IMG/VR virus record: IMGVR_UViG_3300043436_003602
Location: 181-64,180 of that record
From: a virus
Lineage: Duplodnaviria; Caudoviricetes
Direction: 5' to 3' (one strand)
Length of the DNA: 64,000 nucleotides
Position numbers and translations under genes: made by a program. Under the pieces are notes generated by a model, which saw nothing but the letters and a program-made list of their open reading frames with translations, was not told the origin of the DNA and did not search any database. The stretch's first letter is position 1, and each line of letters opens with the position of its first letter. Below are positions 35,102 through 56,897 of this stretch, piece after piece.

Positions 35102-35634
35102 CGTCCAGCCCTCATTTTAGCACGGATGCCTTTCACCACCGCGTTCTTCACGTCTCGACCAATACGGGGGGACAGCTCGCGGTAAGCATCCCTCATGAAC
35201 CACGTTGGCGGGATCATGCCGCCAGGGTGAAAGACACGGGTGGCAAAAACCTTGTCGCCCGTTGCCGCCATGAAGGCAAGTATCTTAGCCTTCTTCGGAT
35301 AGATCATGTGAGGCGGAGTGGCCGCACCCTCTTCCTGAGCACGAGCATAGGGTATGCCTTCAATGTAGACCTTCCCGTCTACTCGAATGCCGTCATCCAC
35401 GATCTGGACCTTGACGGCGTCTTTCATGTGGGTAGGGCTACCGCTATACTCTTTCGGTTTGTCTTGGGTCTTGTTAAGCCGTGACTCGATATTTGCCCGA
35501 ACCTTGTCGGCCATCTCTTCCGTCAACGCACGGGTCTTTTCCAGCAGAATAGCCCGAACAGTGTCGGGCATTTGCTCAAGGTTCCGAAGGAGGTGTCGAT
35601 CTCCCAGGACCGTCAGTTGAAGAAGGTCAGCCAT
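35098..35634 (-). CDS. tail completion / neck protein (HK97 gp10-like)
   Basis: YARAQEEG...H.I.P...HPG...FMRDA. Confidence 0.7.
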   Translation of the reverse strand: MADLLQLTVLGDRHLLRNLEQMPDTVRAILLEKTRALTEEMADKVRANIESRLNKTQDKPKEYSGSPTHMKDAVKVQIVDDGIRVDGKVYIEGIPYARAQEEGAATPPHMIYPKKAKILAFMAATGDKVFATRVFHPGGMIPPTWFMRDAYRELSPRIGRDVKNAVVKGIRAKMRAGR

Positions 35635-36446
35635 CAGACGGGGATCACATTCCGATAGGGTTGCAGGTATCCGCGGACTGCGTCATTCATATCCGAGTTA
35701 ACGAAAGACACGGACTCCCCGACGCCGCCGGATAGCGACTTCGACAACACCCCGATCCGATCACGGCGCTTATACCACTCACCGATGATTTCCGTAACGC
35801 CGAAGCTAACGTCAGGCGGGCAATAGGCGTAGGTGATGACGGCGGTCTTGGTTGCGTCGTTATTCGAGAAGGTGTAGACCCCACTCTCATCGACCGAGTA
35901 TTGACCCGTTGAAGGATCAGCAGTAACCTTAACAGCAGTCAAACTATTGATGGTAACACCGACGTCTGCTACCCACTGCCCGCCATTAGATGGGGTCACG
36001 GTAACAGTCTCAGGCTCGTCGGACAGCTCAAGCACGTAAGCCTGTGAGGTTCGATACCCCGCCTGATAGATGATTTGGCAAGGAACCCGATAATAGAAAT
36101 GATAGCCGTAAAGCTCAAGCGACTGCGGAGCATCGCGAGCATCACTGACTGTATAGCCCTCGCTGGGAAGGCCGCCTTGGCCGAGTGTGGAGGCCTGAAC
36201 CAAGGAACCCCCGATGCCCACAGAGGAGACGGAGATAACGGGCCAGTTCCGGAGGAGCATCGAAGACTTCCCGTTGCCTCGGAAGTTCTCGGTGAAGGTC
36301 TGTGAAGCGAACCCGCCACGGTTCATGTAGTTGAGGGCGAACTGAGAGGCTGCATCGATGATCCGCGTGAGCAGCTCATCGCTGTCACTCGTATCGATAC
36401 CGAGCCAATCCTTTACGGCGGCAAGAGTGGTCAGCCTCTCAGTCAT
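35634..36446 (-). CDS. head-tail connector (gp6-like) with inserted beta domain
   Basis: LTTLAAVKDWLGI...AAS; C-terminal LQPYR. Confidence 0.75.
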   Translation of the reverse strand: MTERLTTLAAVKDWLGIDTSDSDELLTRIIDAASQFALNYMNRGGFASQTFTENFRGNGKSSMLLRNWPVISVSSVGIGGSLVQASTLGQGGLPSEGYTVSDARDAPQSLELYGYHFYYRVPCQIIYQAGYRTSQAYVLELSDEPETVTVTPSNGGQWVADVGVTINSLTAVKVTADPSTGQYSVDESGVYTFSNNDATKTAVITYAYCPPDVSFGVTEIIGEWYKRRDRIGVLSKSLSGGVGESVSFVNSDMNDAVRGYLQPYRNVIPV

Positions 36447-36450
36447 TCGC

Positions 36451-36768
36451 TCAGTCCTCGCTGTCGGAGGCGGCTTCCTTGGCCAGGCGCCGCAGCTTCT
36501 TGAGGCTCATCGAGTTGTCGGCATCACCGCCTCGCTCTTCGATGAACTGGACGAGTTCGTCCTTGTCGTCCATCCCCTCGATCAAGGTCTCGACATCGGC
36601 CGGGTCTTCATAGTACTCGATGAAGCCCAAACGCTTCAGGGTCGGGAGGTGGTCGGGATTGACGACTTCGATCACACCCGACTTGGGGATGGTATACTGG
36701 TGTCCTTCGATGGACGCTTCGGCGCTGGTATTTTCCGGCGCCTTCATCAAGGTCTTCTGGTTACTCAT
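36451..36768 (-). CDS. small capsid-adjacent protein (shared N-terminal module + HeH/Rho-N-like C-terminus)
   Basis: Directly after capsid gene; KDEL..F....G....KKL helical motif. Confidence 0.65.
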   Translation of the reverse strand: MSNQKTLMKAPENTSAEASIEGHQYTIPKSGVIEVVNPDHLPTLKRLGFIEYYEDPADVETLIEGMDDKDELVQFIEERGGDADNSMSLKKLRRLAKEAASDSED

Positions 36769-36849: not shown

Positions 36850-38361
36850 TTAGCCGATGTTGGCGATGACGCCCATGCTCGGCGGGAAGTAGTGCTGGAG
36901 CACCTCGTCGGCATAGACGCCATACTCGTACTTACGAGTGCGCAGCGGCCATTCGATCTGGTAGTACTCCTGACGGGTGCGGACGCACATGACGTTCCCG
37001 ACGCCGCTCACCGGATACGGAAGAGTCCGCGAGGTGAACAGGATCATGCCCTGCGGCATGTTCGGGTGGATACGCACCTTCAGCACGTTGGCGCCGTTCA
37101 TGGAGAAGCGGTTCAGGTAGGTGGCGACCATGACGCCGCCTGCAATCATCCCCTGCTCCATGTTGACGACGATCCGGTAAGCACCGGACGAATTGGTCGC
37201 CAAAATCTTCTGCGAGATGGCCAGCGCCTGATCCGAGCTCACCCAGATGGTGTCAGGGGTCAGACGATAGTTGTCCCAGAAGCTCTTGAGGGCAACGTCG
37301 ATCTCGACGATACCGCCCGCATTGTCCGTCGAGAGGCTTGCGCCGTTCAGCGAATTATAGTAGGCGTTCGACCCTGCCTTCATCGCCTGCGTGAGCAGGC
37401 CGTCGAAGACGAGATTGTTCGTCGAATTGTCGGCCGAGGGCAGACTTGCGTAGTTCTGCGTTCCCGAGCCGGCGTCGGTGGTCAGCACCGCACGGTTGAC
37501 CGTGGTGATCGCGCCGAGCGTTGCCGCAGCACCCGAAGCACCCCAGAACCAGGCGTAGGCAACAGCACCCCGAACGGCAGCAACCGTCGCGGTGATCGAG
37601 CCAGTGGTGCCCGTGGTTGCAACCGAAGCCGTCGCCGACTTCTGTGCAGAGCCACCGCCGAAGGTATCCACAGAGGCGTCGGCGTTGGTGCGCGTGACCT
37701 CGGTCGGGATGCCTGCGGTAACCGATGCGTTGACGTAGCCCTCGAGAGTGAGAGCGACGCAAGCAACGTGCTTGGTGGTTGCGGTCATGGTACCGCCGGT
37801 CGTCGAGCCGAGCAGCGACGGGGTGGGAGTGGTGCCGAGGGCGACCGTCCCGTTCCCACCGAGGATCAGCATCTCTTCGCCCAGCATCAGGGCTTCGAGA
37901 CCTACCTTGGCAGCGAGAGCACGAATGTCCTCGAAGCCCTGGCCGGCATACTGTGCCTCGAAGTCCACGTTGTCTTCGATGCCGATACCCTTGTAGGCAG
38001 CCGCATAGTCAGCAACGGTGACCGCCATCACGGCGCCGCGGTTACCGCCGCTGACACCAATCCGAATACCGGACGTGTTGATACCCGTGACCGCTTTCCA
38101 GTTGGCCTGGATACCGCCCTTGCCCGAGACGCGCGGAATTTCGTTGCGCAGCGGGGTCAGGACCGGATACAGGAACTTGGCGCCGATTTCCAGGTCGTAG
38201 AAGGTCAGGCCGGTGGTGGCCGAACCAGATTGCGAGAAGGTGCTCTTGGCGAGCGCTTCGGGCAGGGTGGGGTTCATGATCTGCGGGGCATCGCCGAGCG
38301 CCTTCATGAGAGCGTCGAGCGAAGCACCTGCAGCGAGGCCCTGTTCTTGCACTATATTCAT
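36850..38361 (-). CDS. major capsid protein with Thr/Ala/Gly-rich inserted domain
   Basis: Follows protease-scaffold; TPLRNEIPRV, FDGL and IHPNMP motifs; strong codon bias. Confidence 0.85.
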   Translation of the reverse strand: MNIVQEQGLAAGASLDALMKALGDAPQIMNPTLPEALAKSTFSQSGSATTGLTFYDLEIGAKFLYPVLTPLRNEIPRVSGKGGIQANWKAVTGINTSGIRIGVSGGNRGAVMAVTVADYAAAYKGIGIEDNVDFEAQYAGQGFEDIRALAAKVGLEALMLGEEMLILGGNGTVALGTTPTPSLLGSTTGGTMTATTKHVACVALTLEGYVNASVTAGIPTEVTRTNADASVDTFGGGSAQKSATASVATTGTTGSITATVAAVRGAVAYAWFWGASGAAATLGAITTVNRAVLTTDAGSGTQNYASLPSADNSTNNLVFDGLLTQAMKAGSNAYYNSLNGASLSTDNAGGIVEIDVALKSFWDNYRLTPDTIWVSSDQALAISQKILATNSSGAYRIVVNMEQGMIAGGVMVATYLNRFSMNGANVLKVRIHPNMPQGMILFTSRTLPYPVSGVGNVMCVRTRQEYYQIEWPLRTRKYEYGVYADEVLQHYFPPSMGVIANIG

Positions 38362-38460
38362 AACTACCTCTTTCATTTGTGCAGTTGGTTGACGAAAACC
38401 TTTACCGTCCCCGGTAAAGGGCAGTGGTTGGCTCCCGTCCCCGGTCGCCTCGTTGCCTCT

Positions 38461-40398
38461 TTATTGCTGCTTGAGACGCAGCTGCTGACCTCCCTGGGCG
38501 TGGGAGGCCTTAATCATCATGGTTGCCATGGCGTCGGGCCCATGAGTTGCAAGCATCTCCTGGACGACAGCGATCTTCTCGGCTTCAGTCGATGCCTGCT
38601 TGCCGAAGAACATGCCGTCACCGCCCTTTTCCATGAAGTTACGCGGAGCGCGAGGAAGCGGGGTGTCCTCGATAGCCTGCATCCGCTTGGCCAGTTCCTC
38701 CACCTTTTCGACCGCTTCACCGGCGACCTTCTTCAGCTCGGCATTCTCTGCCCCAAGGGCATCGAAACGCTTCTGCATCGGCGGCGAGAGCACGTCATCA
38801 TCCGTGGACCCTGGCGTCGCCTCAACGTAGCCGAAAGTCTTGGCCAGCTTCTCAAGCTGTTCGACCGCCTGTTCGAGTTCGTCTTCCACAGCCTCGATCA
38901 GCTCGACCACGTTCTTGGCCAGGTCGTTTCCTTCGCCGGCGGCCCGATAGTAATAGTCGTAGGCATAGCGCGGTGACAGGTCGGCATCAAGGCCGGCGAC
39001 CAGCTCAGCAATCTGCTGCTTTGAGTAGTCCATGAAAGAGTCACCGAAAGCACCGAGGTGCTTCGTCAGCTCAGCCGCAACCTCGCTGTCCACCTTGTCG
39101 TTGCCTTCGAGCTTTCCTTCAGCCTTGATGGTACGCGCGAGGCCTGCAACGTCCCCGAGCATGTTGGCAAAGCGGCTGACGGTATACATGCCCTTCTCGA
39201 GCAGAGGTGCACCATCTTCACCCCGAGGCAGCTCAAGTTCGAGAACAGCCTTGTGGAGATCATCGACCCGGTCGAGGCTGAGGATCGACACAACTTCCGC
39301 CTCGTCCTCAGGCTGCAAGGCCTTGCTCAGCCGTTCGCGCAGCTTGTCAGCATCGGTCTTCGGCTCAGGGGCTTTCTGAAAGGCCTCCTCATGAGCCATC
39401 GCATCGGCCTTCTTCTCGAAGGTCTTGCCGTCGCTTGCCGTCCACATTTGCTTCACCCCGGGCGGAGTGGTTTTCTCGACGGCACCGGAGGCTTCATCTC
39501 CGGACGCCGAGTCTTCAGCTCCTTCGTCTGCCTTGCCTTCTTCGGTTTCTTCTTCGGCTGCTCCTTCACCGGCCTTGCCCTCCTGGCGCTGTTGCTCCAG
39601 TGCGGCTTGTGTCGCACCGACCTTGGCCAGCTCTTCGCGAGCGGCTTCGATATGGTCCGCCCAGGTGGTACCGTCATCCGCGGCTTTCGCCAATTCACCC
39701 GCCTTCTCAGCAACCTGAGCAGCGGTCGGTTCCACAGTCGGGGAGGGTGCAGCCTTCTCAGCCTTGGCCTTCTTTTTCTTGGCCGTTTCTTCGTCATCGT
39801 CGGTGACGCCGGCTTCGGGCTCTCCCTCCTTCATTCCGTCTTCAGCCTTGGCAAGCTCGGGCCACTGGTCGGCGTCGTGCTCCACCTTGAACTCGATCAG
39901 CTCTTCGGCACCATCGGCCTTGACGAGCTGGAAAGTTGCCGAAGGAACGCAGGGGTTGTCGACCAGGCTCACCTCGTTCGGGACCGCGGTGAACTTCTTG
40001 ATCTTCTTGTTGTCATTGGCGGTCTCGGTCCACTTCTTCCCATAGCTGCCGCCGACGCTGAAGCCGGTATAGCAACCTTCAAGGACCTTGTTCCACTCGG
40101 CGTCATCAACCACCTTTGCGCAGACATCGATGGCCTTCTCGTCGTCATCGAACGACAGATCGGTCAGCTTGCCGGCCACAGACAGCCCGTGCATCACGCG
40201 GACATTGCCCTTCGACAGGCCGCCGGATGCTTCATGGATTTCATTGGACCATTTCTCGAAGTTGGGCTTCGAGGTTTCGTAGTCCATCACCTCCCCGGAC
40301 TTGTCCAGGACTTCCTGGGTGATCCGACCATAGACGAGGCGCTGTTCCTCGTCCACCTTCATCAGCGGGACGAATACCCGCGCCTTCGACTTACTCAT
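38461..40398 (-). CDS. prohead protease-scaffold fusion
   Basis: KVDEEQRLVYG, RVMH, GFSVGG, EVSLVDNP followed by acidic coiled coil. Confidence 0.85.
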   Translation of the reverse strand: MSKSKARVFVPLMKVDEEQRLVYGRITQEVLDKSGEVMDYETSKPNFEKWSNEIHEASGGLSKGNVRVMHGLSVAGKLTDLSFDDDEKAIDVCAKVVDDAEWNKVLEGCYTGFSVGGSYGKKWTETANDNKKIKKFTAVPNEVSLVDNPCVPSATFQLVKADGAEELIEFKVEHDADQWPELAKAEDGMKEGEPEAGVTDDDEETAKKKKAKAEKAAPSPTVEPTAAQVAEKAGELAKAADDGTTWADHIEAAREELAKVGATQAALEQQRQEGKAGEGAAEEETEEGKADEGAEDSASGDEASGAVEKTTPPGVKQMWTASDGKTFEKKADAMAHEEAFQKAPEPKTDADKLRERLSKALQPEDEAEVVSILSLDRVDDLHKAVLELELPRGEDGAPLLEKGMYTVSRFANMLGDVAGLARTIKAEGKLEGNDKVDSEVAAELTKHLGAFGDSFMDYSKQQIAELVAGLDADLSPRYAYDYYYRAAGEGNDLAKNVVELIEAVEDELEQAVEQLEKLAKTFGYVEATPGSTDDDVLSPPMQKRFDALGAENAELKKVAGEAVEKVEELAKRMQAIEDTPLPRAPRNFMEKGGDGMFFGKQASTEAEKIAVVQEMLATHGPDAMATMMIKASHAQGGQQLRLKQQ

Positions 40399-41972
40399 GC
40401 CGTAGCTCCTTCATTCATGGTTCGCAGAAATGCCGCCAGTTGTTCTTGATCGCCAGCGGCTACGAGACTTTCCAGAGTCTTGACCACGCCGGCCTTATCC
40501 TCCTTCTTCTCTTCGTCGCCGTCGTCTTGCTGTTGGCTTCCTTGCTCACCCGGATCAGGCGAGTTGATCGGATCGCCATTCTCATCCAGCTTTTCGCCCC
40601 CTTGAGCCTGAGCGGTCAAGGTAAGGGGCGCAAGGCCGTTAGAGGTCATAAACATCGGTTGGTCAAACATGGGGTCGTCATAGGGCTCACGGCCCATATC
40701 CTGACGCGCCTCATTCATGGACAGCAAGCCATCCTTCAGGTAGCCCGATGTAATCTGCTGACGCTTGGTCGGGTCAAGCTCGTCGTCTCCCCGCCACGTA
40801 AACTCAAAGTCCGCTGCATCAAGGTCTTCAGCAAGGACAGTATCGATGAGGTCCTTGATCCAGTTTTGGATCGGCGCTAGCCCTGTGGAAGCAGCTTCCT
40901 GTGCAGCGGTATCCGAAGTCGCCCGGTTCATCATCTGCAAGAAAGGCTGGGGAGAAAGGCTGAACGCAAAGCAAGTTACTCGTGCCAGCCATTCCTCAGC
41001 CTTGCCGAATAGCTCGGTTTCCTGCGTGGGAATATACGTCTTGCCGACCGCTGAAGGAACGAAGCGAGCCTTGCGGCGCTCGCCGAGGTTTCCTGCAAGG
41101 AGATTATCGAACCATTCCTGGAACGTCCTGATCTGATCGGGGGTCCACTGCTCGGGGACGCCGATCAAGGCGGAGGGCATGTTGCCTTCGGTGAAGAAAT
41201 TGAGCTGGAAGATTTGCCGACGTAGACCAATGTTAATGGTCATGAGCAGCTGTTCCACAGGCGAGTAGCCGTAGACCTTATGAACCCGCAGGTTACGCGG
41301 GCGGTATAGCAGCTCGGACGCCCGGTAATTAACTGCCGGCATCCCCTTGAGGATTTGTTGGTAGGCGGTGTCATCGGGATGCTCGGGAGTCCGGCCCCAA
41401 TCGTCGAGAACACGGCGGACAGTTGCACCATCAATCTGGTCGAGGGCGATCAGCTTACCGCCTCGGGTCTTGCGCCGATGCAAGGAGACGGCATCGACCA
41501 CAAACAGGTCCTCGAGGATCATCCTCAGCCAGGCGTTCCAGCTGTGGTCGCCATCAGGCTTCAAAAAGAACTTGGTCAGTTCCTTGATCTTGTTCCGCTT
41601 CTGAGCGGTCATCTTTTCCTTGGAGTCACGAAGCTGGATCACCCACCGAAGGCGTTCCATGGCGTCCTTGCGAGTCTCGATGATGAGGCGCAGCAGGTCG
41701 TAGGCGTCAGCAAAGGCTCGCAGCGTGGCGAAAGAGATGGGCTCGTAGGCCCGCGTCTGGTTGATGATGTTGTAGCCGTTGGGGAAGTCGAAAGCACGGC
41801 CCTTGACTTCCTCGGGTGCTTGAGGTGCCATCGGTTGACCAGGGCCAAACCAGTCAGCACCTTTGCCGGTGTTGCCGAATGTCATCCCGACAGTATAAGG
41901 TGCCGTAAAGCTACCGGGGTTCAGCGCGACTTCGCGGCCCCCACCAGCTGCAGCTCGTTGACTCCTTGCCAT
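40395..41972 (-). CDS. portal protein
   Basis: Follows terminase; YGYSP, FFTEGNMP, NEAR...G..P. Confidence 0.9.
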   Translation of the reverse strand: MARSQRAAAGGGREVALNPGSFTAPYTVGMTFGNTGKGADWFGPGQPMAPQAPEEVKGRAFDFPNGYNIINQTRAYEPISFATLRAFADAYDLLRLIIETRKDAMERLRWVIQLRDSKEKMTAQKRNKIKELTKFFLKPDGDHSWNAWLRMILEDLFVVDAVSLHRRKTRGGKLIALDQIDGATVRRVLDDWGRTPEHPDDTAYQQILKGMPAVNYRASELLYRPRNLRVHKVYGYSPVEQLLMTINIGLRRQIFQLNFFTEGNMPSALIGVPEQWTPDQIRTFQEWFDNLLAGNLGERRKARFVPSAVGKTYIPTQETELFGKAEEWLARVTCFAFSLSPQPFLQMMNRATSDTAAQEAASTGLAPIQNWIKDLIDTVLAEDLDAADFEFTWRGDDELDPTKRQQITSGYLKDGLLSMNEARQDMGREPYDDPMFDQPMFMTSNGLAPLTLTAQAQGGEKLDENGDPINSPDPGEQGSQQQDDGDEEKKEDKAGVVKTLESLVAAGDQEQLAAFLRTMNEGATA

Positions 41973-41990: not shown

Positions 41991-43682
41991 TCAGGACGGT
42001 AGTGGCATCGATTGCTCGAAATACCTACGAAAACCAGCACTTTCGAGAGGTTTTACGTCGATCTCCCGGACGTGGAAAAGCCCGTCCTGGTCGACCATGT
42101 ATTTCTCACCGTCAGCACCGAATGCCGTATTTATACCTTGAGGGGCTTGAAGAGAAATAAGGGTACCAGTCAACGCGGGCGCTTTACCCGTCAGTCGATC
42201 AGCAACAGCTTTGGCTTCTTGACGGTAATAATCCATCAGCCCTTCGTGCGAGATCGATCCAACCATGAGCTCTGTCAAGCCCCAGACCAGCGCGTCCATT
42301 CGGTCGGGAGAATAGCCCATGTTGCCATCAGGCGTGAACTCACACATCTGATCCTCAAGCTCTGGGAATGTTCCGACGTGGTGAACCCTCTTCTGCTCAT
42401 AAAGCTGCGACACCGGCTCAGCTCGAACGTACTTGCCGCGGGTTGCATGGACTGCCTTCAATGGCACAAAGTCAGCCGTCCGCATAAGGTCATCCTTCAA
42501 GGAACGTGCTGCGCCTCGAAGAACAGCAGCAACCATCTCCCCGCCTTGGTTAGCCTCATAGACGATGTTGTCCGCCTCCCATTCGTCAAAGGCAATAACC
42601 GCGGCGCGGCCCCACTCTTCGGGAGAACCGGCAAGCGACAAGTCTTCTAAGACGTATCCACGACCTTCGCTGTCACGGCCAACAACCACAATGCCCGTTT
42701 CCGCCGCGGCTTCACCGATCTCCTTAGCGGGATCGACCGCAACAATGACACGGGAAAAGTGAGGCAAGTGGATGGGGGTAAGACTATCGACCGGGCGAAG
42801 ACGAGACTCGTCAATCATCGTCCGACTCCACAGTGCGCCGGGCGTATCATCAAGGAGCTCAGCGTTAAGCTCCTGTCGGCCGATCCGGGTGCCCTCATAC
42901 TTCTCGACTACCGCTTTACGGAAAGGCGGCGCAAGGTTGATCAGGTTTTCCATGGTCGTGCCCTTGGTGATCGCCGTATCACTCCGGAGAATAATGTCCT
43001 TGAGCAGCTTCATCGGTCGAGGCGTCGTAGTTACGAGCTGCTGGGGGTGGTCACCCAAGCGAAGACCGAACTGCAAGTTATCCCACGCTTCCTGTGCATA
43101 CCGCCACTTGCACAGCTCGTCGCACCATGCGCCATCGAACTGCGGACCGCGGAGTGAGTCATAGTCTTCTGCGGAAAACAGGGTTGCTTGTGCGCCGTTC
43201 GGCCAAGTCAGTCGACGCTTCGAAGGCTCATACTTGGGCTTGAAGTCTCGGGGCGAACAGGCAAGGATACCGGACTCACCCTCGACCATAACGTCACGGG
43301 CGTCAGCGCTGTCTTCTGCCACAAGGGCGATACGCTTGCACTTGCCTTCACGCACCCACTTGATGATTGTCTCTGCACCGCATCGCGTCTTACCGAAACC
43401 GCGTCCAGCAAGAATAAGCCAAGTTACCCAATGCTCACCGTTTTCTAAGACCGGGGCCGGCTCAAGCTGGTTGGGACGTGCCCACAGTTCCCAAGTGTGT
43501 AGGAGGTCATCCGCCTCTTCGTCGGTAAGGTCTTCAAGCTTGCTCAGGTCAATGTTCTTGAGGTGCTCGTTACGCAGCTTGGTCCCGTCGACTTCCTTCA
43601 GCCGCTGCTCGACGCTTGCGTCCACGGATAGGTCCATCTCCAGGTGCAGGGAGTGCGAGGATCGGCGGTGGCCCTTCGCCAT
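41991..43682 (-). CDS. terL: terminase large subunit (start uncertain) with C-terminal extension
   Basis: AGRGFGKT, WCDE, TTTP, VAVDP, DRMDA. Confidence 0.95.
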   Translation of the reverse strand: MAKGHRRSSHSLHLEMDLSVDASVEQRLKEVDGTKLRNEHLKNIDLSKLEDLTDEEADDLLHTWELWARPNQLEPAPVLENGEHWVTWLILAGRGFGKTRCGAETIIKWVREGKCKRIALVAEDSADARDVMVEGESGILACSPRDFKPKYEPSKRRLTWPNGAQATLFSAEDYDSLRGPQFDGAWCDELCKWRYAQEAWDNLQFGLRLGDHPQQLVTTTPRPMKLLKDIILRSDTAITKGTTMENLINLAPPFRKAVVEKYEGTRIGRQELNAELLDDTPGALWSRTMIDESRLRPVDSLTPIHLPHFSRVIVAVDPAKEIGEAAAETGIVVVGRDSEGRGYVLEDLSLAGSPEEWGRAAVIAFDEWEADNIVYEANQGGEMVAAVLRGAARSLKDDLMRTADFVPLKAVHATRGKYVRAEPVSQLYEQKRVHHVGTFPELEDQMCEFTPDGNMGYSPDRMDALVWGLTELMVGSISHEGLMDYYRQEAKAVADRLTGKAPALTGTLISLQAPQGINTAFGADGEKYMVDQDGLFHVREIDVKPLESAGFRRYFEQSMPLPS

Positions 43683-44100
43683 GTCCTTCAAGTACTCCTT
43701 GCTCCTCCGGCGAGCTTTCTTCGGAAATCGCCCCTTGAGACTGGAGCCGCGCAATTCGATTGAGCAGCTTCGCTTTGCTTCCTTCGACACTGATACCTCC
43801 ACTCAGTTCAAGCTTGCTGCCGCGGTCATACTTCTCGGGCCTACGAGCCTTCAGTATCATCGCCATCAGCGGGTCGGACTTTTTGAGGGCTCTCTCGGTT
43901 GCGGCGTCCTCGATAAAGTCAGTTCCTTCCTCCATCGCCTCATCCCAGTCGGCGGCAAAGTCGGGATCGGTCTCGCGCCACTTCTTAACCTGACGAGCAG
44001 TCAACCCCGCGGCGTTAGCGGCAAAGGAGACGGACGAACCAACCGCCAGCTGGTCCAAGAAAATCTTCCGTCGTTTGTATGTGCGAACAAAGTGGGACAT
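43570..44100 (-). CDS. terS: terminase small subunit
   Basis: HTH (AANAAG...KKWR..DPDF..DW), SD.L..MILKA.RPEKY; upstream of terL. Confidence 0.85.
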   Translation of the reverse strand: MSHFVRTYKRRKIFLDQLAVGSSVSFAANAAGLTARQVKKWRETDPDFAADWDEAMEEGTDFIEDAATERALKKSDPLMAMILKARRPEKYDRGSKLELSGGISVEGSKAKLLNRIARLQSQGAISEESSPEEQGVLEGHGEGPPPILALPAPGDGPIRGRKRRAAAEGSRRDQAA

Positions 44101-44106
44101 GGGCAG

Positions 44107-44135
44107 TTGATCTCGTATCGCGTTCAAGGTAAAAT
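44107..44135 (+). promoter_or_regulatory. sigma70-type promoter
   Basis: TTGATC-17-TAAAAT; spacer contains the half-motif ATCGCGTT. Confidence 0.65.
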
Positions 44136-44165
44136 GCACGTCGTTCCCAACAAGGAGTTCAACGC

Positions 44166-44831
44166 ATGGCACGAGCAAGAAAATCCCATATAAGCAATGA
44201 AGAGAAGGTGAAGAACCGCAGCGGCCCCCTTGAGTACCCCTACGTTGTCTATTGCTCGTACCATCGTGAAGGCGAAGACCACGCTCGATGCTTAGTCCTG
44301 AAGTTCACCGATCCCGCGAGCGCGCGTAACATGGTGGACCAGGTCATCGGGAATGACGAGTGGGAGTGGCAGCTGTGGATGGGCCGCGACGACATGGTGG
44401 TTACATCGAAGGGGATCAAGATACGAACTTGGGGCAACGAGATGCGAGAGATCATGAGCGTTGACCCCGCCGACGTTGAACGTGAAGAAATCAAGCATGT
44501 CCTGCAGTTTAAGTATAGCTCTCCCGAGGGCGGCCGAAAAGAAAAGCTGCCCGTCCACAACCCGCTGAACGATGACCCCGCCACAGTCCGGCCCGGGAAG
44601 CCCGTCAAAGAGAAAGCTCCTCCCAAGCCGAAGGTTGATCTGTCGGGAATGGTTACTGCGAAGGATATTGCCAAGAAACTTAAGGTCGAAGGACGAGAAG
44701 TTCGCGGCGTCCTTCGATCACTCAAGCTGACCAAGCCCGATCACGGATGGGCCTGGTCCAAGGATGAAGCAGCGAAGATCGAGGAGAAAGTTCATGCTGG
44801 CCTCAAGGAAGCCAAAGCCAAGAAAAAGTGA
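44166..44831 (+). CDS. protein with C-terminal HTH-like domain (paralogue family)
   Basis: VTAKDIAKKLKVEGREVRGVLRSLKLTKPDHGWAW; AAGGAG RBS. Confidence 0.75.
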   Translation: MARARKSHISNEEKVKNRSGPLEYPYVVYCSYHREGEDHARCLVLKFTDPASARNMVDQVIGNDEWEWQLWMGRDDMVVTSKGIKIRTWGNEMREIMSVDPADVEREEIKHVLQFKYSSPEGGRKEKLPVHNPLNDDPATVRPGKPVKEKAPPKPKVDLSGMVTAKDIAKKLKVEGREVRGVLRSLKLTKPDHGWAWSKDEAAKIEEKVHAGLKEAKAKKK

Positions 44832-55259: not shown

Positions 55260-56414
55260 CTATGCGATTGGTATGCCGTAATAAGCGCCACGGTTGCGCT
55301 CAATAAGTTGGCGCTCCGCGGTGGAAAGGACGGAGGGGAACGAAGTCAATCCTGAAAAAGTGCCGTCAAATGGTAACGATGATCCAAGTCCATTCAACGA
55401 ACCTATCGCGCTATTGACCCCCGTAAAGACGGTCGTAATTGTTGCGCTATCCCATTCCGCGCCGTTCTTAAACAGTTTCCACTGCTCGCTTCCGGTGGTT
55501 GATATAGATGTGATCAAAGTGAGTGTATTTGAAATAGCAACATCTGCGGCTAAACCGTTGGTTCCATTGCCTCCCAAAGCTGTAGGGTTGGCTACGTTTA
55601 AGCGCCCAGCCGAAATAGGCCCAGCCGATACTTGGTTTGCAATAACGTAAAAACGGCCATTTTGCCCCGAAGACCACTGCCCAAAAACAGTCCCAAATTC
55701 ATTTTCAATCGTCGGTGTGAACAGAATAAACAAACTGTGCGTTGTGCCAATAAGCGGAGAAGCGGCAGCTAAATAATCATTTACGCCATCAAAACGCAGC
55801 GCGGGCCGCCCGCCCTGTGTGATGATTGCCCCATTGCTGACAATTTGCGGCTGATTATCTGGCGTCGTTTGCGTGGCATTGCGCCCATTGCCGCTTTTGT
55901 CATACAAAATGGTGATAAAGCCGTTGCCAGAACCGACAAAATTAAGCAGCGCCTCGGCGTCAAGTTCACCGATGGCGGTAAAGCCAATGTTCGCTTCGGC
56001 ATTGTCACTTGACCGGCGCACCCGAATTGCGTTGCCAGTGTAACTACGGCTTTCACGGCGCAACTCAAAATTGGCAGCCGGTGCCACGGACAATACATCC
56101 ATCACGCCAACATAAAGAAGCGCCGCCGCCGCGCTGGCATTGCCACCAGAATTTGTCGCCGTGACAATACAGCCAAACAAGGCGTTTAGGTCACCGTCCG
56201 GGATGGTGTAATTCTGCGATGCCGACGGAGCACCAACAGGCGTTCCGTTGCGCGTGAACTGATACGCATAGGTTATCGGCGCAGTGCCCGTCCATGTGCC
56301 CGTAGTTACCGATAGCACCGAACCAGTCTGCGATATAACGGGTAAAGCCGTATTGACCGGCGGAAGTGCGGGTGAGCCGGCGCTCGCCACTGCTCCAAAA
56401 AGAATAGGACCCAT
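55260..56414 (-). CDS. fibre-like protein: Ig-like domain + LamG/concanavalin-like lectin domain
   Basis: PVNTALPVI...GTW...YAYQF...VTATN; IRVRRSSD...YDKSGNGRNATQ...FDGVND; lower GC. Confidence 0.7.
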   Translation of the reverse strand: MGPILFGAVASAGSPALPPVNTALPVISQTGSVLSVTTGTWTGTAPITYAYQFTRNGTPVGAPSASQNYTIPDGDLNALFGCIVTATNSGGNASAAAALLYVGVMDVLSVAPAANFELRRESRSYTGNAIRVRRSSDNAEANIGFTAIGELDAEALLNFVGSGNGFITILYDKSGNGRNATQTTPDNQPQIVSNGAIITQGGRPALRFDGVNDYLAAASPLIGTTHSLFILFTPTIENEFGTVFGQWSSGQNGRFYVIANQVSAGPISAGRLNVANPTALGGNGTNGLAADVAISNTLTLITSISTTGSEQWKLFKNGAEWDSATITTVFTGVNSAIGSLNGLGSSLPFDGTFSGLTSFPSVLSTAERQLIERNRGAYYGIPIA

Positions 56415-56426
56415 AAATACCTCCCC

Positions 56427-56897
56427 TTAAGACAGAGCGCCAAATGAAAACCACTGGTTATTACCCAGATAGATCACCTGAGCCACACCCGGAGTGTCAA
56501 CAGAGGTATCCCCCGTGAGAGTAACACCACTTGCCGCCACCAGGGTAAGGGTTCCGGTCGAGAGACGGAGAAGACTTACAACAGTGCCCTCCTCGATGGC
56601 GGGATTGGCAGGCAGGGTCACACTCAAGGCCGACGTACCGGCATTCTTCAACAGATCACCTGGACTGGCGGAACTCATGGTGTAATTAGCGACAAGGTTC
56701 ACTACCCTAACTCGTCGAGCAAGCTGCAGAACTTCCTGAAGACCCGAGTCGAGAAAACTAAAGCCAAGGTTCAGGACATCAGCTAGTCCGGGCCCGTCCA
56801 CACTAACTTGCCCATCATAGAGGGTGTAGGTTACGCCTGCCGCAGTCACGGTGCGAGCCGAGTAGTCCGAAGGGGCTACTAAAATAAAGGCACTCAT
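56427..56897 (-). CDS. fibre adaptor-like protein
   Basis: N-terminal module shared with TerL C-terminus; C-terminal VTLPA...G...W.SFGAL beta domain; AGGAGG RBS. Confidence 0.65.
   Translation of the reverse strand: MSAFILVAPSDYSARTVTAAGVTYTLYDGQVSVDGPGLADVLNLGFSFLDSGLQEVLQLARRVRVVNLVANYTMSSASPGDLLKNAGTSALSVTLPANPAIEEGTVVSLLRLSTGTLTLVAASGVTLTGDTSVDTPGVAQVIYLGNNQWFSFGALS

Follow-up and report, generated by a model that had tools for sequence, protein, structure and literature searches.

How a complex of terminase and DNA finds the single portal vertex of the procapsid has so far been explained mainly through the lambda protein gpFI, which seems to be a special case. The gene of this protein, FI, lies between the major capsid gene E and the head-tail joining gene FII, and its product reads as an N-terminal SAP/HeH-like motif (HeH, helix-extended-helix), an acidic linker and a C-terminal strand/helix domain of ~55 residues that ends in a helix and G-L-A, and whose structure is 2LSM. 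Characteristic activities of gpFI are its binding to the lattice of the capsid protein and its stimulation of the association of terminase with the prohead. One report proposes that gpFI is attached to the gpE lattice and works via non-specific DNA binding (PMC4856287), and two others describe it as a bridge between the capsid and the terminase-DNA complex, the need for which is relieved by suppressor mutations in terminase and in the capsid (PMC13595911, PMC7889075). The present work concerns a mini-domain of ~48 residues found in a protein with a gene in the same position as FI and also at the end of the packaging motor. It is encoded three times in a stretch of 64,000 nucleotides (positions 181 to 64,180 of the IMG/VR record IMGVR_UViG_3300043436_003602; hereafter, the window): in the terminase large subunit (TerL), in a 105-residue protein beside the capsid gene (P0002), and in a 156-residue protein that ends in a knob (P0003).

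Other described systems resemble parts of this arrangement. The TerLs of lambda (gpA), P22 (gp2) and T7 (gp19) likewise have a short C-terminal element past the nuclease that seats the motor on the procapsid; these are described, however, as short peptides specific to TerL, whereas the tail in the window is a folded domain with homologues on proteins of the same phage. In a Bacillus subtilis prophage, YqbF (PF14553, 2HJQ) presumably combines a small N-terminal domain with a HeH-like C-terminus, and its gene presumably adjoins the capsid gene, although its family, PF14553, has no match anywhere in the phage record at E <= 10. In Pseudomonas phage Pa223, the knob-bearing protein gp52 (9NY6) is anchored to the capsid by an N-terminal domain of ~40 residues alone, according to preprint passages, which make no mention of a TerL having the same attachment domain; spikes of this type sit on the three-fold axes of the capsid. 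For lambda-type FI, the listing examined shows no sign of a domain in common with its TerL, no dedicated test having been made. Chaperones of the FI type, docking tails of TerL and capsid anchors at an N-terminus have all been described separately; what is new is their union by means of one portable domain. The initial annotation of the window, made from its letters alone, knew of no described TerL with such a shared domain, and a literature search for one shared with an FI-position protein or a spike agrees with this, within a literature that left most subscription journals outside and did not cover supplements.

The virus record, of 64,180 bases, is rated complete, and with 64,000 of them the window covers almost the whole of a 64-kb tailed phage. 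This phage is kin to the Brevundimonas siphophages: the closest named relatives are siphophages of Brevundimonas pondensis of ~62 kb, with a DNA identity of 76-79% over short stretches.

Three copies of one mini-domain

The three segments, all on the minus strand, are homologous copies of one mini-domain of ~48 residues, and there is no fourth. The first is the C-terminal tail of TerL (42015..42161, LISLQAP...SAGFRRYFE), the second the N-terminus of P0002 (36610..36756, KTLMKAP...RLGFIEYY), and the third the N-terminus of P0003 (56754..56891, AFILVAP...NLGFSF). The range 41991-42160, in which the initial annotation placed the TerL segment, spans the module, the final 7 residues of TerL and its stop codon; its plus-strand reading is meaningless, all three quoted peptides lying on the minus strand.

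The relationship between the first two copies can be seen by direct comparison, since the TerL tail aligns with P0002 over 47 residues (BLASTP, E 2e-4), and a profile of TerL tails (12 rows) matches a profile of the N-terminal part of the P0002 family (50 rows) over 49 columns with a probability of 95.1% and a P of 3e-8 (hhalign), whereas the control, in which the same TerL-tail profile was set against the C-terminal half of the P0002 family, gives a P of 0.38. The third copy is more distant. BLASTP gives no alignment of P0003 with the other two carriers, and the profile of its five-member family matches those of the other two weakly, albeit in the correct register (P 0.0015 and 0.0035); against both families combined the P is 6e-4, and 1 of 400 column shuffles scored as high; this value alone would fail correction, because ~80 proteins had been scanned for the initial annotation.

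The decisive search was made with a profile of TerL tails and P0002 N-termini only, against 1.84 billion representatives. It returned 263 protein clusters at E <= 1e-3, 17 of them at E <= 1e-10, and the domain instances of the best 150 matches were used to build an enlarged profile of 174 instances, without P0003. The P0003 family matches this profile over 47 columns with a probability of 96.2% and a P of 2.8e-9, against a P of 0.26 for the control with the C-terminal part of P0003. When the corresponding hidden Markov model (HMM) was run on the 1165 six-frame open reading frames (ORFs) of the window, P0002 came first (2e-19), TerL second (3e-15) and P0003 third (E 0.0088), while the fourth-ranked frame reached 0.19, and the lower matches were just fragments of 12-15 residues, with no fourth full copy among the 1165 frames.

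The structural models agree with these comparisons. The AlphaFold2 (AF2) model of the TerL tail (predicted local distance difference test, pLDDT, 85.8) has the order strand-strand-strand-strand-helix, and in a separate AF2 model the P0003 N-terminus shows its elements in this order too; 10 of the 17 fold neighbours of the P0003 N-terminal part in the PDB are also among the neighbours of the TerL tail. In a structure search of the ESM Atlas, residues 4-58 of P0002 match two TerL clusters (template-modelling score, TM, 0.72 and 0.68). The shared module announced in the initial annotation is therefore borne out by BLASTP, hhalign, the HMM ranking and the structural comparisons. The pairwise identity of the copies is only 22-28%.

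The domain family

The mini-domain, formed by four short strands and one helix followed by an invariant G-F, defines a large uncharacterised phage family. Its invariant positions are P, G, Y, G, L, G and F, and the pattern that had been read by eye from the three segments (h-x-AP...G-x-x-Y...G...V...L...GF) agrees with the invariant columns of the family alignment. None of the Pfam models covers the domain in the 106 family members scanned; the Pfam families that recur among them are Ish1 (6), HeH (2), Terminase_6C (5), Terminase_6N (3) and Hint-type intein domains. A PHROG family of unannotated function, phrog_26071, is matched by 43 of the 106 wider family members, although the three copies in the window do not match it at E <= 0.1 (proteins) or E <= 10 (genome). 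With the model of the TerL tail, Foldseek finds nothing in the PDB at E <= 1e-3, the best rows being GINS B-domains (TM ~0.5), and only uncharacterised phage proteins in BFVD (best E 9.6e-3); searches of PDB sequences with the domain profiles gave noise or repeated matches of 14 residues to designed propellers.

For the placement of the module within its carriers, the best 150 matches were taken minus 5 long repetitive proteins hit by many short pieces. Among the remaining 145, the module is N-terminal in 67, makes up approximately the entire protein (<= 75 residues) in 31, is present as two or three tandem copies in 26, C-terminal in 20 and internal in 1, with cut-offs that are crude, as the TerL fragment P0082, for example, is classed as N-terminal. 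In many of the N-terminal forms the module is followed by a linker, either acidic or rich in Pro/Ala, and then by a helix-extended-helix motif, and many of the stand-alone forms have short basic tails. Among the C-terminal carriers, the three tested that are full-length or nearly so (P0137, P0156 and P0199) are all TerLs; by eye, 14 clusters are TerLs or C-terminal fragments of them, with the signature TA[FY]G...D-V-x-P-L-x-x-A-G-F. When 176 instances were placed in a tree, a branch of size 20 had 18 of the 21 TerL tails together on one side, with weak support (0.59, from 48 columns). Given this grouping and the signature, the TerL tail looks like a subfamily of its own and not a repeat of the copy carried by the local small gene.

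The three carrier proteins

The gene at 41991..43637 (minus strand) encodes a genuine TerL of the Terminase_6 type, with Pfam matches above the cut-off to Terminase_6N (PF03237, ATPase; residues 129-330, E 1.1e-31) and Terminase_6C (PF17289, RNaseH-like nuclease; residues 355-510, E 4.3e-13), as well as matches to TerL PHROGs. The open frame reaches a GTG at 43802, but the start is probably the Met at 43637, which gives 548 residues, because the forms in the databases have 544-548 residues; they begin at this Met or four codons downstream, which leaves an overlap of 68 bases with the gene of the terminase small subunit (TerS; 43570..44178, minus strand; phrog_4044, E 1.8e-21). The longest frame would overlap the TerS gene by ~230 bases (43570-43802). 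A short linker separates the module from a conserved helix (GLMDYYRQEAKAVADRL) that precedes it, and the TerL of Brevundimonas phage Strzyga has the same module at its end. Several tail-bearing homologues (P0069, P0071, P0086 and P0156) have 750-1065 residues and Hint/intein domains (PF13403, PF14890); these are intein-interrupted terminases of relatives, whereas the TerL of the window has no intein.

P0002 (36451..36768, minus strand; 105 residues, 49 homologues at E <= 0.01) is encoded between the gene at 36850..38376, the product of which (508 residues) is probably the major capsid protein, and that of a gp6-like head-tail adaptor directly downstream (35634..36446; phrog_442, E 8.5e-19; Pfam Phage_connect_1, E 1.5e-10), both also on the minus strand. 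The capsid gene matches phrog_13692 (E 2.7e-144), for which PHROG names no function, and its role is deduced from its place between the protease and adaptor genes. After the module and an acidic linker, P0002 has a C-terminal HeH/SAP-like motif (36472..36579, MDDKDELVQFIEERGG...KKLRRLAKEA), recognised by its conservation in the family; P0002 itself has no Pfam match, and at E <= 1 none to the HeH/LEM and Ish1 models (PF12949, PF10281), while P0151, which aligns with P0002, matches Ish1 at E 1.8e-4, under the cut-off. By its position and parts, P0002 is a candidate FI-like packaging chaperone. On reading, its three parts resemble those of gpFI in reverse order, and the similarity measured between the two is weak (hhalign; small domain, P 0.007 over 18 columns; HeH part, P about 0.01); P0002 has no match at E <= 1 to PF14000 (Packaging_FI), to which gpFI itself scores 4.8e-59, gpFI matching in turn the Pfam SAP model at E 0.0018, under the cut-off. 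On these comparisons of sequence, homology between P0002 and gpFI is not established.

Against cultured phages, a tblastn search with P0002 gave chance-level rows only (E 0.6-8): in the row of a "minor head protein" of Xylella phage MATE2 the stretch is unlike the module when read, and the Aeromonas row falls within a large hypothetical protein. The reading of P0002 as a substitute for TerS was rejected, because a TerS gene is already present. One 99-residue member of the P0002 family, P0048, carries the source name "ABC-type Na+ transport system ATPase subunit NatA", which looks like an annotation error given its length and architecture.

P0003 (56427..56897, minus strand; 156 residues) lies 14 kb away in a separate minus-strand block, and only 5 homologues were found. 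Its AF2 model (pLDDT about 70) passes from the module and one helix directly to a beta-rich C-terminal knob (56430..56708) of the tumour necrosis factor (TNF) type, whose best fold match is a solved capsid spike, gp52 of phage Pa223. The two proteins resemble each other in their general plan, an N-terminal domain, in P0003 a putative attachment domain, followed by a TNF-like knob, and differ in that P0003 has no triple beta-helix shaft and in that the structure search did not align the N-terminal domains. P0003 had been labelled a head-fibre adaptor, for which no support was found, as it looks like a short knob protein itself.

Gene context in related loci

The context was sampled in 61 IMG/VR loci with a portal 35-82% identical to that of the window, in which the homologues of the head genes and of the module were mapped. 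The module is within the TerL open frame in 24 of 24 close loci (L005-L028). Both the capsid and the adaptor gene are present in 32 loci, and 26 of these have a small module ORF exactly between the two; the order capsid-module-adaptor is found in all 14 close loci of this set and in 12 of its 18 distant ones. In a further locus, L060, there are sub-threshold module matches between the two genes. Among the seven distant loci with a recognisable TerL, six are without the tail, and only a weak match (E 0.003) is seen in the seventh, L033. The small capsid-adjacent protein is therefore the older and wider feature, while the tail was added to TerL in one clade and, judging by P0137 and P0156, in TerLs elsewhere too. 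None of 80 loci related to the tail-bearing TerL P0137 has a module, and related-loci searches with P0003, P0118 and P0170 gave no relatives.

In each of 5 related complete genomes there are exactly two detectable copies, one in TerL and one in a small protein. The cultured phage vB_BpoS-Strzyga, which grows on B. pondensis LVF1, has this pair too; its small protein is STRZYGA_00810, of 118 residues, formed by the module, an acidic linker and a HeH-like end, and its gene is flanked by those of the capsid homologue (00820) and of the head-tail connector (00800).

In L056 (2-2230), a frame of 743 residues lies upstream of a related portal gene; its module occupies residues 493-536, with ~200 residues beyond, and it has no Pfam match at E <= 0.1 and the TerL profile does not recognise it.

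Discussion

We tentatively propose, with somewhat less than even confidence in the whole chain of P0002, TerL and P0003, that the module could be a head-docking tag binding the procapsid, most likely the lattice of the capsid protein, which is favoured over the portal as the target. By analogy with lambda, P0002 would be the counterpart of gpFI, its module holding the shell and its HeH-like tail, behind the acidic linker, holding the DNA, and in this way would help the terminase-DNA complex to locate the portal. TerL would have gained a C-terminal copy of its own, behind a linker, such that the motor would be tethered to the shell in cis, and P0003 would use the same tag to anchor a TNF-like knob, presumably trimeric, to the head in the manner of a short capsid spike. 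Because gpFI reportedly bridges the capsid lattice, the DNA and the terminase, the presence of one domain in both the FI-like protein and TerL would be explained. Of this chain, the homology of the copies, where they sit in their carriers, the gene order and the knob fold are observed, and the binding steps, the shared site and the trimeric state are inferred.

Several observations weigh against this proposal. The module gene is missing in 6 of the 32 loci that have both flanking genes, and TerLs without a tail occur together with the small module protein (L053) or with none (L048). In L028 (1227-1511) and L033 (9067-9795) there is an extra module ORF between TerL and portal. Knobs with the fold of P0003 occur on tail proteins too, and a homologue of P0003 at E <= 1 is absent from all 5 related complete genomes; the copy bearing the knob is a recent acquisition of this lineage. 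Finally, the TerL C-termini of the phages studied (lambda gpA, P22 gp2, T7 gp19) dock on the portal. The docking tag originally postulated is thus partly supported, and agrees, circumstantially, with the FI-like position and parts of P0002, with what has been published on gpFI and with the spike-like knob of P0003. A predicted complex of the capsid protein (38-508), the portal (58-517) and the module, computed with alignments, gave a score of 0.00 against a mark of 0.32; having no controls, it counts neither way.

The extra ORF of L028 and L033 occupies the position of lambda W; in L033 it reaches up to 243 residues, with no Pfam family above the cut-off.

The alternative that survives best is that the module docks on the portal: TerL would seat the motor by means of it, P0002 would follow onto the portal after packaging, holding the DNA end or preparing the site for the adaptor, and the knob protein would be an appendage of the neck. 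Since it is there that the TerL C-termini of model phages bind, the portal is an equally natural target, and it is also in agreement with the adjacency of the TerL and portal genes, with the extra module ORF in the place of W, and with the fact that the module gene adjoins the adaptor gene as well. However, the conserved place of the module gene adjoins the capsid gene, as FI does in lambda, and not the portal gene; the tandem and stand-alone forms suit a repeated lattice at least equally; the best match of the knob is a capsid spike; and the site expected on the portal after packaging is already taken by the gp6-like adaptor. We consider docking on the portal a serious, if rather unlikely, alternative.

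It could also be that the domain is a common fold put to unrelated uses, whose copies have diverged towards different partners or merely cap and stabilise their carriers, with no shared site and no hand-over. The low identity of the copies would fit, as would the invariant residues, which look like those of a core and its turns more than those of a binding surface, and the restriction of P0003 to one lineage. Yet the carriers in the loci examined are morphogenesis and packaging genes, with the module at a free terminus behind a linker, and small terminal domains reused within one virion-assembly pathway would usually be attachment domains, which makes this explanation improbable. As for pairing of the modules with one another, in which the HeH tail of P0002 would join TerL as an accessory DNA-recognition subunit and the tandem forms would be pseudo-dimers, it is suggested by those tandems, by the many stand-alone and N-terminal forms with basic tails or HeH-like motifs, and by the single TerL copy and single small-protein copy of each of the 5 complete genomes, but it is left with little probability by the module protein of L053, where TerL has no tail, by the existence of a normal TerS gene, by TerL tails that form their own subfamily (with the weak support given above) and so do not track the local partner, and by the copy on the knob protein, which it leaves without a role.

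Returning to docking on the capsid lattice, a more general form of it would be a head address tag common to a large group of tailed phages, that is, one domain for one lattice site which has moved among an FI-like chaperone, the motor (in at least 14 clusters of TerLs or TerL fragments) and a knob of the receptor type. Motor, chaperone and knob would then share one site, and there would be an ordered change of occupancy during maturation, with a built-in hand-over, similar to that suggested in the initial annotation; in this breadth we regard the idea as doubtful. If it were true, the tag would be portable and could serve for the display of cargo on capsids. The copy on the knob protein points to a compact tag for capsid attachment that could be transferred and would be of use in phage display or engineering. 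The family of proteins in the position of gpFI proves to be widespread, with its small domain fused to the motor too, and the sequence of events "tether to shell, then find portal" becomes directly testable by means of the 48-residue tail. In addition, an unannotated family of at least 263 clusters acquires a name, and a hypothesis of function is gained for the "hypothetical protein" often encoded between the genes of the capsid protein and the adaptor.

The head-gene block and other neighbouring genes

The window has a classical head module on the minus strand, running from 44.2 to 35 kb, with the order TerS, TerL, portal, protease/scaffold-like protein, capsid protein, P0002, gp6-like adaptor and a Neck1 protein. 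The portal (40395..41972, minus strand; 525 residues) is recognised by phrog_2662 (E 3.4e-76) and Pfam Phage_portal (E 4.3e-17), and the head maturation protease or scaffold-like protein (38461..40398, minus strand; 645 residues) by phrog_9427 (E 9.9e-12). The portal open frames have 2.2-2.8 kb in Strzyga (L001:1630-3957) and in many distant relatives, compared with 1.6 kb in the window, either because of a C-terminal extension elsewhere or because the portal has been shortened in the lineage of the window. In the window the portal gene directly adjoins the protease/capsid genes, whereas in L014, L033, L053, L058 and L059 they are 2-6 kb apart because of insertions inside the head module.

Directly downstream of P0003 lies the gene of a 384-residue protein (55260..56414, minus strand) that matches phrog_10356, "virion structural protein" (E 2.5e-22), and, in residues 118-188, Pfam ArabFuran-catal (E 3.8e-7), that is, the catalytic/lectin-like fold of arabinofuranosidase B. 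Its N-terminal stretch reads like a repeat of the immunoglobulin type (TGTWTG...ITYAYQF), and the protein may form a unit with the knob protein P0003.

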